From positions 1-64,000 of IMG/VR virus record IMGVR_UViG_3300029951_000013: a stretch of 64,000 bases of DNA. One strand, given 5' to 3'. The position numbers were made by a program, and so were the translations under genes. Numbering within the stretch: the stretch's first letter is position 1; the number at the start of each line of letters is the position of its first letter. Under the pieces are notes generated by a model. That model made no database searches. It worked only from the letters and a program-made list of their open reading frames with translations, and had not been told where the DNA came from. Positions 4,127 to 10,576 of the stretch are shown one piece after another. This stretch comes from a virus.

Positions 4127-4843
4127 ATGACGACCACAGACGAGAGGCGGTCCCACGGGAGGCCCCGCCCCGAGGAGACCATCCAGCGCGACCAGGCGAT
4201 CCTGGACCGGCTCCGGCAGGAGGGGCCGCAGACCACGGGCCAGCTCGCTGAAGCCCTGAGCGTCAGGGAGTCCCTGGTGGACGTGGCGCTGGGGCGGCTG
4301 CACAGCGCACGGGAGGCCCACCGGCGCCGGGAGATCCACGACGGCTCGTTCCAGACCTTCTGGCACGCGGGCTGGGACGAGGACGCCCAGCCGCGCAAGC
4401 GCCCGCGCCCGCAGAGGGTCGGCCGGGACCAGGTCGTCCTGGACCGCCTCCAGGAGCACGGACCGCGCCGGGTGGACCGGCTCGCCCGCGAGCTGTCCAT
4501 GGAGGAGTCCCTGGTGGAACTCAGCCTGAAGCGGCTCAAGGCCGCGGGAAGGGCCCACTGGGTGATGGACGCGGACGACGATCCTGTCTGGACCGCCGGC
4601 AGGGAGGTCAAGCCGCGCGGCCGGCCGCGGTCCCCGGAGACCATCCGGCGCGACCGGGACGTCCTGGGCCAACTGGTCCAGGGTGGGCCGCAGACCAGGA
4701 ACCAGATCGCCGAGGCCCTGCGCACCAAGCAGTCCCTGGTGTACCTCTCCCTGGGGCGCCTGCGCGGCGACGGCGCGATCCGCAAGTGCGCTGGTGAGGG
4801 TGCTTTCACCATCTGGTCCGCAGACGGGACGTGCGACGGATGA
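4127..4843 (+). CDS. Protein of three tandem winged-HTH-like units, candidate regulator
   Basis: Three repeats of RPR..E/Q...RD..IL..L...GP.....LA..L...ESLV.L.L.RL. Confidence 0.7.
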   Translation: MTTTDERRSHGRPRPEETIQRDQAILDRLRQEGPQTTGQLAEALSVRESLVDVALGRLHSAREAHRRREIHDGSFQTFWHAGWDEDAQPRKRPRPQRVGRDQVVLDRLQEHGPRRVDRLARELSMEESLVELSLKRLKAAGRAHWVMDADDDPVWTAGREVKPRGRPRSPETIRRDRDVLGQLVQGGPQTRNQIAEALRTKQSLVYLSLGRLRGDGAIRKCAGEGAFTIWSADGTCDG

Positions 4844-5127
4844 CCGCGCCGACGCAGGCCGACTGCACGGCCCTCCTCCAGAACGGCGGCCGGAGACTGC
4901 ACACCGGCCTCTGGGAGATCGGCAGCTACGCCTATACCGAGGCGGACGCGCTGGCGCTGGCCGAGCTGTGCCTCCGGCTGGGCCAGCCGCTGTCGGCGGC
5001 GATCACCGCACGGATGTTCCTCGCCGTCGTGCGCCGCCTCGACGCGGTGGAGGCGGCGCTGCCGTCGCAGGTCCCACCGGATCACTGGGGGCCGGCACCG
5101 GACCCGTCGTGTGATCGGAGCCACTGA
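4840..5127 (+). CDS. Hypothetical protein
   Basis: Start and stop overlap both neighbouring genes. Confidence 0.5.
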   Translation: MTAPTQADCTALLQNGGRRLHTGLWEIGSYAYTEADALALAELCLRLGQPLSAAITARMFLAVVRRLDAVEAALPSQVPPDHWGPAPDPSCDRSH

Positions 5128-5774
5128 TGGGCCAGCACCGGACCAACCGCACTCCCCCTCTGACCGTGAGCGTCGCGATACCCACGATCCCCGGGCGCGA
5201 GGCGCTGCTCCGCCGGGCGGTCGCCTCGGTCCACGCCCAGGAGCGCCAGGCCGACGCCATCCTGGTCGAGCGGGACGCCGGGCGCACCGGTGCCGCGCAG
5301 GCCCGGAACCGTCTGCTGGAGCGGTGCACCACCGATGTGGTCGCGTGGCTGGACGACGACGACCTCCTGCGGCCGAACCACCTCAAGGCCTGCCTGAGGG
5401 TCCTGACCAGCAGCCCTGGGACGGACCTCGTCTATCCGAGGCCCAGAATGTCCGGCGGCCAGGACCCCACCGCGACCACCTACCGCGGCCGGTTCCCGGT
5501 CGAGCCCTGGGGCATCCGCTGGCAGCCCGAGCTGGAGCGGCACCTGCGCACCCACGGCTCCTTCATCCCCATGACGCACCTGGTGCGCACCGACGCCGTC
5601 CGCAAGGCAGGCGGCTTCCCCGAGGGCCGCACCCTGCCGACCGGCCGCTACCAGGGAGAGGACGAGCGGTACCTGATCGCGCTGCTGGACACCGGTGCCC
5701 GGTTCGGACACCTGGATGCGGTGACATGGACCTGGACGGTCAACCCGGACAGCACCGCCGGGAGGCCCGCGTGA
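5127..5774 (+). CDS. Glycosyltransferase family 2 (GT-A)
   Basis: VSVAIPTI, ARNR, WLDDDD and EDE motifs. Confidence 0.85.
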   Translation: MGQHRTNRTPPLTVSVAIPTIPGREALLRRAVASVHAQERQADAILVERDAGRTGAAQARNRLLERCTTDVVAWLDDDDLLRPNHLKACLRVLTSSPGTDLVYPRPRMSGGQDPTATTYRGRFPVEPWGIRWQPELERHLRTHGSFIPMTHLVRTDAVRKAGGFPEGRTLPTGRYQGEDERYLIALLDTGARFGHLDAVTWTWTVNPDSTAGRPA

Positions 5775-6223
5775 ATGCCGCCGTCCGGTTCGCTGCCGCA
5801 TACGCCGCTCTCACCGCCTCGCACAAATTTGCGGATCACTGGATCCAGGTCGACGCGCAGGCCACCGCCAAGGGCGACCCCGGCACAGCAGGGCGTCTTG
5901 CGTGCGCGTCCCATATCGCCACGTACACCGTGACGCAGGGTCTCGCACTGCTGGCTGCCGACAGACTGCTCGGCCTACGTCTCAGCCCGGGACGTACTGC
6001 CGCCGCGCTGGCCGTCTCAGCCGGGACGCACTATGCGGCAGACCGTCAGGCGGGACACTGGCGGGACGAGGCACCACGCGGGGTTGCCCGCCTCGCCACA
6101 GCCACCGGGCACGCGAGCTGGCTCCAACGGGACCCGAATTCCCCCTACCTGCTCGACCAGGCATGGCACGAAGGATGGATCTTCATTGCCGCTCTGGTTG
6201 CAGCAGGACGCGGGACAGGCTGA
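5771..6223 (+). CDS. DUF3307-like membrane protein
   Basis: H..ADHWIQ...K, H...Y, THY..D and DQAWH motifs; GTG overlaps the upstream stop. Confidence 0.7.
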   Translation: MNAAVRFAAAYAALTASHKFADHWIQVDAQATAKGDPGTAGRLACASHIATYTVTQGLALLAADRLLGLRLSPGRTAAALAVSAGTHYAADRQAGHWRDEAPRGVARLATATGHASWLQRDPNSPYLLDQAWHEGWIFIAALVAAGRGTG

Positions 6224-6326
6224 GACGCTGGACTGAGACACCGTGGGACAGGGCCGGGACGCGCAACGCGTCCCGGCCTTCAATGCGTCCCGGGACTCGC
6301 TGGACACGGCGTCTCAGTTGGTCTAG

Positions 6327-6340
6327 GATTTAACTAAATC
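6327..6340. promoter_or_regulatory. Palindromic operator candidate GATTTA-AC-TAAATC, upstream of a TACGAT -10
   Basis: Perfect 6-2-6 inverted repeat in an AT-rich intergenic patch. Confidence 0.6.
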
Positions 6341-6372
6341 GCTTAGTTACGATCACGGACCAGGAGGACCCC

Positions 6373-7134
6373 ATGGTCAGAGCTGCAGCACGGCTGGAGA
6401 CGCCGAGGTATCGCGCCCTGAGCCGGTCCGTCCGGCAGCGTCTCGCGCCCTACCCCGGCGGACCTGAACGGTGGATCTGGGTTCCAGTGGACCTGGACGG
6501 GCAGTGGGAGCCGCTGGCCCGGGACAGGGCCGCCGCCCCGTCCCTCTGGGAGATCGTCAGGAAGGGTGTCAGCCGGGTCACGGTAGAGATCGACGCCTGC
6601 AACCGGTACCCGGCGGAGCAGTGGGAGGTCGGGGTGATCGGCATCCGTCATCGCACTGAGACCGAGGTCTACACCGGTGCCCGCAACTACGTGCAGAGCC
6701 TCCTACTGTTCCTGGACGTCTCGCTGACACTGGGACAGCGTCCCGGCGACAGCCTGTCGGAGACGCGTCCCAGCGTCCCGTCTTCGGCCGTCCCGTTTCA
6801 GCGCGACGCTGGGACGCGTCCCGGAACGAGGTCGATCGGAGACGTCCCACGTGGGACGCACCCGCCGGTCGTCTACGTGCTGCGCAACGGGACGCGCGTC
6901 AAGATCGGGACGACCACCCACCTGCGCAACAGAGTGCACCGTCTCGCGTTGCGTCTCGATGACGTGGTGTTCGCCATGGACGGCGGCCGGGAACTGGAGC
7001 AGGCGTTGCACCAGCGTTTCGCCGCACAGCGTGTCGGGGACACCGAGTGGTTCACCGAGACGGGCGCTCTGGCAGCCTTCATCGCAACGCACAGCGGTGA
7101 GACGCACCGCGGCGAGACAGGAGTGTCCCAGTGA
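6373..7134 (+). CDS. T5orf172/GIY-YIG-domain protein
   Basis: C-terminal VVYVL..G.RVKIGTT...R...LE..LH.RF...R...EWF; AGGAGG RBS. Confidence 0.8.
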   Translation: MVRAAARLETPRYRALSRSVRQRLAPYPGGPERWIWVPVDLDGQWEPLARDRAAAPSLWEIVRKGVSRVTVEIDACNRYPAEQWEVGVIGIRHRTETEVYTGARNYVQSLLLFLDVSLTLGQRPGDSLSETRPSVPSSAVPFQRDAGTRPGTRSIGDVPRGTHPPVVYVLRNGTRVKIGTTTHLRNRVHRLALRLDDVVFAMDGGRELEQALHQRFAAQRVGDTEWFTETGALAAFIATHSGETHRGETGVSQ

Positions 7135-8069
7135 TGTGGCGTCGCAAGAACCGTCCCAGCCAGTCGGCTACCGAAACGGAAGCGAAGTCCTACCGGAAGG
7201 ACCGGTTCGTTCGGTCCGCTTCCGAAACGGAGACCGGACTGGGCTGGGTCGATCTGCTGACCGACTGGGGCCGCCCGCTGGTTGCTGCCATCGTCCTGGT
7301 CATGTGCGCCCCCGGAGAGCATTTCCTGGCTCGGCTCGCGGGTTGGAACCAGTGGCTGGCCTGGGGCATGCCCGCTGTCCTGACTGCCTACGCGGGCATC
7401 GCCGCCGTCGTAGCAGCCAAACGGCCTCGGAAGACCGAAGGCAAGGCCACCGCCGTCGCCGGCGCGGTCGTTTCCGTCCTGCTGGCTATGGCTGCCCAGC
7501 CGGTGGCGCACCTGCTGATGCTGACCGGTCCTTGGGACACTCGGCACACCGTCACGCTGGTCGTCTCGTGCATTCCGTCCCTGGTGCTGGGACACCTGCT
7601 CCACCTCGCGGCGTCCCAGAAATCGAAGCGCGCCCCGTCCCAGCGTCGCACCGCAGTCGTCCCGTCCCAGAACGGCGTCGCAGCCGCAGCGTCTCCGGGA
7701 CGCGACGCCGTCTCAGCATCCGTGTCTCGCCGAGCTGTCTCTGAGACGCCTCGGGCCGATAAGCGTCTCAGCACTGAGACGCCGCTCGCGCAGATCGAAG
7801 GTGTCCCCGAGACGCCGAGTGTTGCGGAGACGCTGTCCCACTTTCCGGCTGGGACGGGGAGCGTCTCGGAGGACGACCTCCTCACCACGGCTGAGGCGGC
7901 GCAAGCTGCGTCCCAGGCGCGCGGTGAGACGGTCAAGCCGTCCACGGTCCGCACCTGGAAGAGCCGGGGTCACCTCACCCCGGCAGTCGATGAGGACATG
8001 ACGCTCTACCGTCGCGGCGACGTTCTGGCCTACGCGACACGCAACACCGTCCCGGTCACCGGCGACTGA
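7131..8069 (+). CDS. DUF2637/Spd-like membrane protein with C-terminal excisionase/MerR-type HTH
   Basis: Four hydrophobic segments, a low-complexity linker, then LLTTAEAA...VKPSTVRTWKSRGHL..LYRRGDV. Confidence 0.7.
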   Translation: MMWRRKNRPSQSATETEAKSYRKDRFVRSASETETGLGWVDLLTDWGRPLVAAIVLVMCAPGEHFLARLAGWNQWLAWGMPAVLTAYAGIAAVVAAKRPRKTEGKATAVAGAVVSVLLAMAAQPVAHLLMLTGPWDTRHTVTLVVSCIPSLVLGHLLHLAASQKSKRAPSQRRTAVVPSQNGVAAAASPGRDAVSASVSRRAVSETPRADKRLSTETPLAQIEGVPETPSVAETLSHFPAGTGSVSEDDLLTTAEAAQAASQARGETVKPSTVRTWKSRGHLTPAVDEDMTLYRRGDVLAYATRNTVPVTGD

Positions 8070-8107
8070 GACGCACTCGACCATCTGACCAGAGAGCAGG
8101 CCGACCA

Positions 8108-8539
8108 ATGACCACGCCGTCCATGACCAAGAACGCCGCTCCGCAACAGCAGGGCAACACCGGCTCCAGCCGTCTCAACGCGCTGATCCAGGCGCTGGAG
8201 ACGGTGCAGATCGAGAACCAGTACGACCTGCACGAGTTCTGCGAGGCGCTGCGGGGCCTGGGCCACAGGCTCGCGGTGGAGACCATGATGGGCTCCCACG
8301 AGCTGGAGGCCGGGCTCAAGGAGCAGGCCAAGGCGGACGCCACTCTCGGTATCCCGGGCTTCGACTCGCGCCGGGCCATCCGGGGCACGATCCGCCAGTT
8401 CAAGTCCTGTGCGGACCACTTCGCCTCGGCGGCCGGGTGCGCCGCCGCCGGCTGGACCTCCTTCGAGAAGAACTTCGACCAGGCCCTGTCCCGCAAGCCG
8501 AAGGCCGCCAAGCGCGGCGGCTTCAAGATCGAGGGGTGA
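8108..8539 (+). CDS. TraA-like plasmid transfer protein (putative)
   Basis: Small helical ORF directly upstream of traB, as in Streptomyces plasmids. Confidence 0.45.
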   Translation: MTTPSMTKNAAPQQQGNTGSSRLNALIQALETVQIENQYDLHEFCEALRGLGHRLAVETMMGSHELEAGLKEQAKADATLGIPGFDSRRAIRGTIRQFKSCADHFASAAGCAAAGWTSFEKNFDQALSRKPKAAKRGGFKIEG

Positions 8540-8548
8540 GGTGCGGAC

Positions 8549-10576
8549 ATGACTGCCAAGATCGTCAATCACGTCGAGGAGAAGGTCCGAGAGAACAGCG
8601 CGCCGTGGCTGACCTGCGCGGCAGCCATGCCCGTCGCCTTCGTCACGCACGCCGCCTGGGGTGGGGACCCGGCCATGCAGGACGTCATCGCCGCCAGCGT
8701 GCCGGTCATGGCGGGGTGGACCTACCACACCTGGAGCCGCCGCCACGAGCACACCCGGGCACTGGCCACGATCATCGCGGCCTCCGTCACCGGTTGGACG
8801 GCGCTGGCCACCTCCATCTCCCCGTGGACCCCCGGCATGGTGGATTCCTGGTTCATCGGGGGCACCCTGCTCAGCATCATGTGGAACACCCGGCACCTGG
8901 CCCACAAGCCCGCTGCCGAGAGCGACAGGACTTCGGCGCGCGAGGATGGCCTGACCGAGGCCGTAGGCGGCTCGTTGAAGGGCAGCAAGGTCCGCAACAT
9001 CAAGACCAAGCTGGGTCGCGTCGAAGCGGACATCCAGCTCAGCCCAGGTGAGACGGTCGACGGCGTCCAGATGGACAAGGGCCGGATCGCCTCCGTCGCC
9101 AAGGTGGGGACTGAGGAGGTCTCCGTCATCGGCGAGAGGGGCCGGGCCGACCGCCTCAAACTGGTCTTCCAGGCCAACAGCACTCTGGAGCGAGTGGTGC
9201 GCTGGAAAGGCCCGTCCGCTCCGGGGAAGTCCATCGCGGACGCCCCGCTACGGATCGGCGAGCGGGCCGACGGCAGTCCGCTGGAGCTGTGGATCGTCGG
9301 CAAGGACGACGACGAGGACCCCCGATCCCTCCCGCACACCCTGGTCACAGGCATGACAGGCTCCGGCAAGACTGAGACCGTCAAGACAGCGATCATCGAC
9401 ATGCGGTCCCGCACCGACGTGGTCCCGGTGGTCGGAGACCCGGCCAAGTTCGCCCAGTCCTTCGGCGAGATCGCCGACATGCTGGGTATCGCGGCCGTCA
9501 ACAAGCAGCAGTGCGCCCAGCTGATCCGGAACCTGCCCGGAACCATCGCCTACCGCGCCGAACTGCTGGGCAACCTGGTCCGCTCGGACGGCGGGATCGG
9601 CTATCCCCAGTGGGAGCCGGAGTGCTGGACCGAACACGGCATCCCGCTGGTGTTCATCGACATCGAGGAAGCCACCGACATGGTGGGCGAGGACATGGAC
9701 GAGCCGCTGCGGAAGGCGCGTTCGGTCGGACTCCCCCTATCGGTGTCCTTGCAGGTCGCGGTGTACCGCAACCTGGCCCGGGAGACCCGCGGCCAGTTCG
9801 CCAATGCCCTCGCGCACGGCTGCAAGGAAGACCTGGACGCCAAGTTCGCCCTGTCCTCGGCCACGCGTGAGGCGGGGGCCGACCCGACCAAGTGGGGCGC
9901 CGACAGCCCGGGCTCGCTGTACGCCGAGCTGATCGGCACGCCGGTCGAGAAGTGGCCGGTGGAGGCCCGGAACTACCGCTTGACCAGGGAGGAGAAGCAG
10001 GCGGAGAAGGAAGCCAGCCGGGCGACCTGGGCCACCCTCGACCCGGGAACCGCCATGGTCCTGGGTCGGGGCATCCCAATGCCGGACGCGAAGATCACCA
10101 CCATGCTGCCGCCGGTTCCGACCGACGTACCGGCCACGGCTTACCCGGCTGGAATGGCGATGCTGCACAGCCTGGCAGGGGGCACGGCTGAGGAGCCGGA
10201 AGAGCCCGCCACCGACCTGACCAGGGTCGACACCGAAGAAGGAGACATGGACATCACCCGGAAGCTGGCCCGGCCCACCGGGGAGCCGGTCGCCCTGTGC
10301 GGCCCCTCCGAGAAGGTGCGCATGACCACCGATGCCGCCCGCGCCCTGGTCGAGCAGCGGATCGACGTGCTGGAGGCCAGCAACCGGATGGAGGTCGGCT
10401 ACGACGACCTGGCCGACCTGGCCAGTCTGACCGGGCGCCGCCCTAACTGGGTCTACGACGAACTCCACCGGCTGGTCGAGTCGGGCCGCCTCAAGGAGGG
10501 CGCGAGCGCCAAGCCGCCGTACCTGATCTGCGGCAGCGGCAAGGTGCTCCAGTTCCAGGGCCACGGGTCACGGTGA
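8549..10576 (+). CDS. traB: TraB-like FtsK/SpoIIIE conjugative DNA translocase
   Basis: N-terminal TM helices; Walker A HTLVTGMTGSGKT; Walker B FIDIEEA; KARSVG..L.VSLQ; C-terminal wHTH. Confidence 0.85.
   Translation: MTAKIVNHVEEKVRENSAPWLTCAAAMPVAFVTHAAWGGDPAMQDVIAASVPVMAGWTYHTWSRRHEHTRALATIIAASVTGWTALATSISPWTPGMVDSWFIGGTLLSIMWNTRHLAHKPAAESDRTSAREDGLTEAVGGSLKGSKVRNIKTKLGRVEADIQLSPGETVDGVQMDKGRIASVAKVGTEEVSVIGERGRADRLKLVFQANSTLERVVRWKGPSAPGKSIADAPLRIGERADGSPLELWIVGKDDDEDPRSLPHTLVTGMTGSGKTETVKTAIIDMRSRTDVVPVVGDPAKFAQSFGEIADMLGIAAVNKQQCAQLIRNLPGTIAYRAELLGNLVRSDGGIGYPQWEPECWTEHGIPLVFIDIEEATDMVGEDMDEPLRKARSVGLPLSVSLQVAVYRNLARETRGQFANALAHGCKEDLDAKFALSSATREAGADPTKWGADSPGSLYAELIGTPVEKWPVEARNYRLTREEKQAEKEASRATWATLDPGTAMVLGRGIPMPDAKITTMLPPVPTDVPATAYPAGMAMLHSLAGGTAEEPEEPATDLTRVDTEEGDMDITRKLARPTGEPVALCGPSEKVRMTTDAARALVEQRIDVLEASNRMEVGYDDLADLASLTGRRPNWVYDELHRLVESGRLKEGASAKPPYLICGSGKVLQFQGHGSR

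Follow-up and report, generated by a model that had tools for sequence, protein, structure and literature searches.

The region described here lies in a window of 64,000 nucleotides, which is the first 64 kb of an 88,895-bp contig with 69% G+C (IMG/VR record IMGVR_UViG_3300029951_000013). Genes for a portal, a major head protein and a tape measure are carried by the same contig as a traA-traB pair of the Streptomyces plasmid type and, because of this combination, the element is a phage-plasmid. Upstream of traA-traB, a gene for a family-2 glycosyltransferase (GT2) is followed by a small open reading frame (ORF), an intergenic gap, a gene for a T5orf172/MUG113-domain protein and a gene for a multi-transmembrane (TM) protein with a C-terminal helix-turn-helix (HTH) module. 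This last gene, called here the TM-HTH gene, ends 39 bp before traA, which is followed by traB. Superimposed on the genes between GT2 and traA, and on the gap between them, is a dense cloud of the hexamer GRGACR and its complement YGTCYC, and this cloud is the subject of the present analysis (Table 1).

Table 1. Features at and around the hexamer cloud, in window coordinates.
Feature	Position	Strand	Basis
Family-2 glycosyltransferase (GT2)	5127-5774		
Conserved small ORF, cloud copies in its 3' two-thirds	5771..6223	+	
Hexamer cloud, 67 GRGACR/YGTCYC sites, core YGRGACGC	5907..8073	both orientations	regex count
Intergenic gap, about 6-7 motif copies	6224..6372		
T5orf172/MUG113-domain protein, 25 motif copies	6373..7134	+	Pfam
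Multi-TM protein with C-terminal HTH, 26 motif copies	7131..8069	+	hydropathy scan, weak HTH matches
Stretch coding four hydrophobic segments	7263..7616	+	hydropathy; homologous to L002 and L044 TM domains
Low-complexity linker, SQ/VS/ET rich, densest part of the cloud	7617..7868	+	no alignment with any related locus
C-terminal HTH module "type C", HTH_17/MerR-like on weak evidence	7869..8066	+	
traA homologue	8108..8539	+	NCBIfam plasmid_TraA, E 1e-12, under the curated equivalog cut-off
traB, FtsK-like dsDNA translocase with C-terminal winged HTH	8549..10576	+	NCBIfam plasmid_TraB, E 1.9e-108

When the sites were counted by regular expression over positions 5850-8150, exactly 67 were obtained, the first at 5907 and the last at 8068-8073. 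The entire contig holds 312 sites, which corresponds to about 2.8 per kb outside the cloud and to about 6 expected in 2.17 kb. An earlier note, made from the sequence of the window, had given very similar figures (about 67 copies in about 2.2 kb against about 7 expected). An unbiased ranking of k-mers across the contig found the same word independently and lengthened it to approximately YGRGACGC. This longer form occurs 26 times within 5900-8080, with 12 copies on the plus and 14 on the minus strand, against 17 copies over the other 86.7 kb, which amounts to a density ratio of 61-fold. Furthermore, groups of three sites within 60 bp were observed 11 times inside the cloud and just four times elsewhere, and no second comparable cluster was found anywhere else in the 88.9-kb contig.

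The spacing of the sites is irregular, and numerous pairs abut or form palindromes (e.g. GGGACGCGTCCC). Regular iteron spacing or polarity was looked for among the cloud sites and none was found. In the TM-coding stretch, no site is present from 7152 to 7534, in agreement with the absence previously reported for about 7160-7530. The cloud had also been said to stop at 8073. The last site of the dense cloud does lie at this position, but additional sites are present at 8171 and 8198, within 100 bp of the start of traA, and at 8487, and the edge tapers into traA instead of being sharp.

The first gene under the cloud had been labelled DUF3307. This label was not supported, as no Pfam match was obtained for the small ORF at E<=0.01, nor even at E<=5; the ORF is conserved in other Streptomyces plasmids. 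In the gap, 3' of the stop codon of this ORF, a perfect hairpin with 12-bp arms contains two copies of the word (GGCCGGGACGCG-caa-CGCGTCCCGGCC, about 6252-6278). A sigma-70-like promoter match is located at 6301-6329 and a palindrome, GATTTAACTAAATC, at 6327. In the next gene, the T5orf172/MUG113 domain covers residues 167-229 of the product (MUG113, 31.0 bits for a cut-off of 22.3; T5orf172, 23.7 bits for a cut-off of 20), and most of the motif copies are found in the non-conserved N-terminal half.

The excess of sites was compared with a synonymous expectation, for which the amino acids were kept fixed and the codons were resampled according to the codon usage of the contig (500 resamples). 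The T5orf172 gene contains 25 sites against 6.3±2.1 in the resamples (maximum 14), the TM-HTH gene 26 against 8.3±2.3 (maximum 15) and the small ORF 8 against 1.7±1.2 (maximum 5), so that all three cloud genes lie above every one of the 500 resamples. For the control genes, the observed and resampled values were 3 and 1.1 (traA), 2 and 4.4 (traB), and 2 and 1.4 (GT2). The cloud sites are present in all six strand/frame classes. The enrichment thus withstands the correction for codon and amino-acid usage, at 3-4-fold over the synonymous expectation. The bias of the encoded proteins toward ET, SQ, VS and GT, also pointed out in the earlier note, is visible in the translation.

A stricter null was constructed by taking, in each of 200 resamples, the maximum over all exact k-mers. 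The T5orf172 gene passes this test, as none of the 200 resamples reaches the observed value. The degeneracy of the motif explains why the TM-HTH gene alone fails it (22/200 at k=6 and 14/200 at k=7).

The evidence is clearest for the small ORF, when it is compared with its ortholog on plasmid pCQ4. The two products share 98 of 150 residues, and the pCQ4 gene contains no copy of the word where eight are present here. These eight copies are built from genome-rare codons (CTA, CGT, GGA, TCA) together with a few conservative replacements. The sites were thus overwritten onto a conserved gene. The excess of the word is not a by-product of the encoded proteins; it reflects selection acting at the DNA level.

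The product of the TM-HTH gene consists of an R/K-rich N-terminus, four hydrophobic segments, a linker rich in SQ, VS and ET, and a conserved C-terminal part of 70 residues. With these C-terminal ~70 residues, sub-threshold Pfam matches were obtained to HTH_17 (E=0.009; 16.7 bits for a cut-off of 27) and to MerR_1 (E=0.09). The Atlas models that resemble this region include MerR and HTH_17 clusters (TM-score 0.66-0.77 by query) and are taken as leads only. The PHROG matches of the protein are of unknown function, and the PDB profile search, for which the C-terminal alignment was used, returned spurious matches only, nothing relevant. Positive charges precede TM1, lie between TM2 and TM3 and follow TM4; following the positive-inside rule, the C-terminus would be cytoplasmic.

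No homologue of the TM-HTH protein was found by tblastn against plasmids or by a pattern scan of viral contigs, and a word-indexed protein search with residues 225-312 matched only the protein itself. The closest named relative of the element in the plasmid collection is the Streptomyces sp. S1D4-14 plasmid pS1D4-14.2 (TraB identity 41%), and BLASTP gave no similarity between the TM-HTH protein and its analogue on this plasmid. The relatives of the locus were retrieved via TraB synteny.

According to the available text of PMC4447253, SpdB2 of pSVH1 is a spread protein with four TM helices, which oligomerises, forms pores, binds dsDNA, contacts the C-terminus of TraB and is also found on actinophages; intramycelial spreading or pock formation depends on it. 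The TM-HTH protein resembles it by its four predicted TM helices followed by a C-terminal part predicted to be cytoplasmic, and by the location of its gene in an operon just upstream of traB. No cognate site array is described for SpdB2 in that text. By architecture and position, both of which agree, the TM-HTH protein is thus judged to be an analogue of SpdB2, although the Pfam family DUF2637 was not recovered in it.

The IMG/VR contigs that encode a related TraB number at least 29 and measure 29-98 kb. The loci of the TraB alignment, designated below by L numbers, originate from genomes (12), IMG/VR (29) and metagenomes (13), and several are mutual duplicates; the compared loci are 14 kb each and are not whole elements. 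They share a conserved order: GT2 (60-64% identical), a variable stretch, a multi-TM protein with an HTH-like tail, traA and traB. In 32 loci, the top enriched hexamer of the 3 kb upstream of traB was compared with those of two control windows, in the body of traB and downstream of it. The median log10 p was -23.4 upstream, -4.8 in the traB body and -5.3 downstream, and values below -10 were reached in 30/32, 1/32 and 0/32 loci, respectively. The homologous loci therefore do have their own enriched hexamers, as the earlier note had proposed to verify. The sole traB-body case is L020, in which the cloud runs into traB: GGGACA copies are present from 6224 to 7601 in the linker of the TM protein and inside traB, 11 of them at 7468-7601, including the variable linker before the winged HTH (wHTH).

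The words differ according to the element and include GGGACA, RGGACA, CGGACA, AGGACA, GAGACG, CGARAGC, GCTSAGC, TCCGGA and CCGGGAC. When the synonymous resampling was applied to the relatives, the excess was 4-10-fold overall (for instance, 30 sites against 3.5 in L003 and 12 against 2.3 in L041). The T5orf172 gene is absent from most of the cloud-bearing loci. Among the positional equivalents of the TM-HTH protein, Pfam DUF2637 was detected in L005 (1.7e-9), L020 (1.9e-12), L047 (1.5e-14) and pWTY27 (1.2e-6), and the C-terminal HTH modules fall into several unrelated types.

The word was then compared with the proteins that could read it. The TraB wHTH blocks of L033, whose word is CGARAGC, and of L003, whose word is GGGACA, are 85% identical and their recognition helices are nearly the same; L001 and L036 provide a similar case. 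Among 28 loci, four pairs with at least 70% identity in the TraB wHTH carry unrelated words. Conversely, our own locus and L039, L041 and L044 have one word despite very different TraB wHTH helices (blocks at most 45% identical). After this comparison, TraB was set aside as the reader of the word. TraA was also rejected, the TraA of L001 being 72-75% identical to those of the GGGACA loci and just 50% identical to that of L033.

A different picture was obtained for the C-terminal HTH module of the multi-TM protein. The type C module, present in our own locus, L039/L051, L041 and L044, is always accompanied by GRGACG, and the loci that carry it, which have two different TM domains, fall at three places in a tree of TraB from which the wHTH was left out. 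The type A tail ("IVPTLPG...SLKKAIQR") occurs with GGGACA in 10/10 loci, and the "SIRAHRSAL" tail with CGARAGC in 2/2 loci, at two places within the type A clade. Over the same 28 loci, no pair with at least 60% identity in the HTH tail has unrelated words. In partial Mantel tests, the correlation of the motif with the HTH given the TraB wHTH was r=0.73 (p=0.0005), and that of the reverse test was r=0.30 (p=0.004). Thus, the word tracks the C-terminal HTH module of the multi-TM protein, and not the TraB wHTH or TraA, in line with the co-variation of hexamer and HTH anticipated in the earlier note.

The comparison of the loci at the DNA level points in the same direction. On either side of the linker and the HTH, the DNA of L033 and L003 is 72-78% identical, over the TM-coding part in one direction and over traA-traB in the other; this homology is lost exactly over the linker and the HTH, where the cloud lies. 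The same pattern of homology break was observed for L001/L036 and for L039/L029. The linker, the HTH and the cloud are thus swapped jointly, as one cassette, between otherwise collinear backbones.

When our own locus is compared with L039, L041 and L044, only the HTH-coding piece (7869-8045) can be aligned within the cassette; L044, L002 and L017 are alignable with our own TM piece and with the C-terminal domain of the T5orf172 protein. No alignment between our own locus and L039/L041/L044 was obtained for the linker, the gap or the N-terminal half of the T5orf172 gene, yet these are dense in the same word. Because the same word persists at high density in unalignable DNA, the sites are being renewed and not merely inherited. 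Moreover, since a cassette placed in a new TraB/TraA backbone keeps its word, the simplest reader would be one that moved with the cassette, whose sole protein-coding content is the linker and the HTH.

The interpretation that we favour, and to which we would give an even chance, is that the cloud is an array selected at the DNA level, a set of candidate sites for the cytoplasmic C-terminal HTH of the TM-HTH protein, which would tether the DNA of its own element at the TraB complex. In such a mechanism, an oligomeric membrane protein would expose many HTH heads of low specificity, each of which would bind the word weakly. With about 30 weak sites of 6-8 bp per kb, against about 3 per kb elsewhere, the oligomer would acquire avidity for this 2-kb stretch alone. 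The DNA of the element would in this way be kept at the membrane, next to the TraB pore, so that it could be transferred by conjugation, spread through hyphae or be segregated. An exchangeable cassette composed of the HTH and its site cloud would provide element-specific capture and, with distinct words and cassette exchange, co-resident elements would not compete for each other's machinery. The earlier note had already proposed that the TM-HTH protein coats the cloud and tethers the element to the membrane. The parts of this proposal that concern the association of the hexamer with the HTH and the codon-corrected enrichment have been borne out; the binding itself, the cytoplasmic topology, the oligomeric avidity and the tethering function at the membrane are what we infer.

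Several observations weigh against this interpretation. The HTH-coding DNA lies in or beside the cloud, so that linkage alone predicts an association, and the k-mer vectors used in the partial Mantel tests include the HTH-coding DNA. The independent type C contrasts number two on well-supported branches and three on all branches; they are concordant, but with so few a sign test cannot reach 0.05. GGGACA is also found with tails that are just 17-28% identical (type A versus type B) and, within type C, the residues of the recognition helix vary while the word is unchanged. The HTH assignment of our own protein is weak, as it depends on sub-threshold Pfam matches, PHROG matches without known function and Atlas look-alikes, and no Pfam match to DUF2637 was obtained in its TM domain at E<=5. 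In the available text of PMC4447253, DNA binding by SpdB2 of pSVH1 is reported to be non-specific. Finally, the comparison spans loci of 14 kb, so that a distant co-varying reader could exist.

Other explanations have to be set beside the tethering one. The cloud could be an expanded clt, that is, a set of TraB recognition sequences that are read by the C-terminal wHTH and load the translocase on the element. TraB proteins bind clustered 8-bp repeats adjoining traB (PMC4447253, PMC4170104 and PMC3583192, in their available text), and in the TraB-clt systems of pSVH1, pJV1, pIJ101 and pWTY27, as these texts present them, short element-specific repeats beside the gene of an FtsK-like translocase mark the DNA for transfer, as would be the case here. 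The core of our own word is about 8 bp long and adjoins traA-traB, no classical direct-repeat clt was seen 3' of our own traB (just scattered two-copy repeats), the cloud of L020 is partly inside traB itself, and the reverse Mantel test leaves a residual correlation for the TraB wHTH. These points are opposed by the comparisons reported above, in which nearly identical wHTH recognition helices go with unrelated words (L033 and L003, L001 and L036) and very different helices with a single word. The layout differs as well. Known clt, which transfer requires in cis, comprise 4-9 same-strand repeats over about 50-175 bp, usually 3' of the tra genes, whereas the cloud covers 2.2 kb without polarity, 5' of traA-traB and mostly in coding DNA. 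As a control, the mapped clt of pJV1 and pWTY27 were re-found directly after traB, with nine and four repeats, all on the plus strand and within about 150 bp; in both plasmids they are apart from a second motif run in the SpdB2-like gene. Two defining features of a clt were thus looked for, namely same-strand repeats of 7-9 bp within about 50-200 bp and a repeat that co-varies with helix 3 of the TraB wHTH. What was found is 67 sites over 2.2 kb, about half on each strand, and no such co-variation. Because neither feature is present, the cloud is not a member of the clt class. We give TraB only a slim chance of being its reader.

The reader could also be a protein encoded outside the cassette, such as a regulator or partition protein elsewhere on the element, the T5orf172 protein, an upstream wHTH protein or a host factor, in which case the array may silence or time the tra operon. 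A promoter-like element in the gap has sites on both of its sides, two of the copies make up a hairpin, several small wHTH ORFs are present upstream in our own and in related loci, and the limited span of the compared loci leaves room for such a protein. We nevertheless regard this as unlikely: the backbones are orthologous on both sides of the swapped cassette while the word changes, the T5orf172 gene is missing from most cloud-bearing loci, more than sixty sites running through coding DNA do not resemble an operator, and a host factor would not account for different words per element within the same genus. It seems more improbable still that no dedicated reader exists and that the cloud is a by-product of low-complexity linker evolution, of slippage, of gene conversion or of selection linked to restriction and modification. 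Much of the cloud does lie in low-complexity coding sequence, L039 has five tandem units of 24 bp, and in pWTY27, pJV1 and L007 the motif is mostly frame-locked in charged repeats; GAGAC, GGGAC and CGTCTC presumably resemble type IIS restriction sites. However, the sites are found in both orientations, in all frames, in non-coding DNA and in a conserved, non-repetitive gene that was overwritten with rare codons; their excess over the synonymous expectation is 3-4-fold here and 4-10-fold in the relatives; the word is kept across unalignable linkers; and a dense cluster of restriction targets would be a cost and not a help. This explanation is consequently the one to which we give very little credit.

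The tethering interpretation was also compared with DNA-protein systems already described. The background statements of the earlier note on SpdA2 and TraB are printed in PMC4170104 and PMC4447253, as far as the available text of these papers extends, namely that SpdA2 recognises motifs within its own gene and that clt repeats of 8 bp are bound by TraB. In the former (PMC4170104, same limit), the site of SpdA2 from pIJ101 is described as a palindrome located in the gene that encodes the protein and constraining its sequence, and the effect is on plasmid inheritance, not on replication. Our system resembles this one in that a short motif is located in or next to the coding region of the proposed DNA-binding protein. 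It differs from it in two respects. The sps motif is a single conserved palindrome of 12 bp that many plasmids share, with 1-3 copies, whereas 30-80 copies of an element-specific word of 6-8 bp are found here. In addition, SpdA is a small soluble protein, whereas the reader proposed here is an integral membrane protein. With up to 1 mismatch allowed, no match to the sps palindrome CGTCACGTGACG was found in the window; in the pJV1 control, four half-site matches were detected at about 6.7 kb. Because the sps sequence is absent, the cloud is not a member of the SpdA-sps class.

Arrays of many short sites that are co-operatively bound and position a DNA region are known from ParB-parS, the heptad arrays of the pSM19035 omega protein, RacA-ram and Noc-NBS, and RacA and Noc exert this positioning at the membrane or the pole. 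Unlike these centromere-like arrays, the proposed reader would itself be an integral membrane protein, and the sites are irregular and overprinted on genes. No homology to ParB, ribbon-helix-helix proteins or RacA turned up in this work, in which no search was aimed at those arrays. In the literature found on Streptomyces transfer and spread systems, such a cloud is not described in the text available.

In two plasmids with mapped clt, the SpdB2-like genes, which encode TM, coiled-coil and HTH parts, also contain runs of a 7-mer: CGTGAGC in pJV1 (L015, 666-1781), with 12 copies against a synonymous expectation of 1.1, and CGCGAAC in pWTY27 (L016, 5597-6694), with 15 against 1.6. Under the maximum k-mer null, none of 200 resamples reached the observed values, and both runs are apart from the mapped clt. 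They are mostly on one strand and frame-biased in charged repeats, and some deviation was seen in the TraB control genes as well. That these runs belong to the same system is regarded as a lead and not as a result.

On a broader scale, and tentatively, since we would sooner doubt than accept it at this stage, the clouds could represent a general, undescribed addressing system of actinomycete TraB-type elements and phage-plasmids. An SpdB2-like gene with an HTH and a cassette of cognate words would capture the DNA of its own element and act as a determinant of specificity or incompatibility that diversifies by swaps, the runs of pJV1 and pWTY27 being a smaller form of it. In Streptomyces conjugation, dsDNA is moved by a single FtsK-like motor, and the only DNA binding so far described for SpdB2 is non-specific. 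If the proposal is true, the spread machinery would gain a defined handle on the DNA, in the form of a reader that is anchored in the membrane, recognises a specific sequence and has a dense array of sites in its own gene; this could also explain the separate transfer of co-resident elements. The rule that relates the HTH cassette to the word spans more than 30 natural variants, and the locus offers a clear natural case of protein-coding sequence rewritten to hold a DNA signal.

The other parts of the element and of the related loci call for a few additional observations. In the window, positions 26803-52802 encode the portal, the major head protein, a tape measure with a lysin-like part and a MuF/protease-like fusion. 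Our own TraB scored 363.7 bits against NCBIfam plasmid_TraB, under the equivalog cut-off of 800; the Walker A sequence GMTGSGKT and a C-terminal wHTH-like block are kept in the TraB alignment. The protein is considered to be a relative and not an equivalog. The sequence CCGAAACGGA is present in four copies in the 88.9-kb contig (7171, 7222, 10790 and 80519): two fall within the 5'-terminal part of the TM-HTH gene and one in AT-richer non-coding DNA just past traB. This sequence could form a second cis element of small size.

In L039, the TM-HTH gene is preceded by five tandem 24-bp units (4150-4270), each containing GAGACGC and TGCAACGCAACG, and copies of another word, TGCAACG, are interspersed among the cloud sites. 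In L003 (3284-3748), L006 (3286-3744) and L001 (5006-5509), the cloud is preceded by a small ORF whose product ends in a segment similar to the TraB C-terminal wHTH ("..RPWIVGELKQLTDEGVL.."); this product may be a stand-alone paralogue of the domain with which TraB recognises DNA. In L001, whose main cloud is made of CGARAGC, six same-strand copies of CCGGGAC are found within 200 bp (5269-5471), and a type A tail is still encoded there by a separate ORF (6860-7270). These CCGGGAC copies may be the remnant of a former GGGACA-type cloud.

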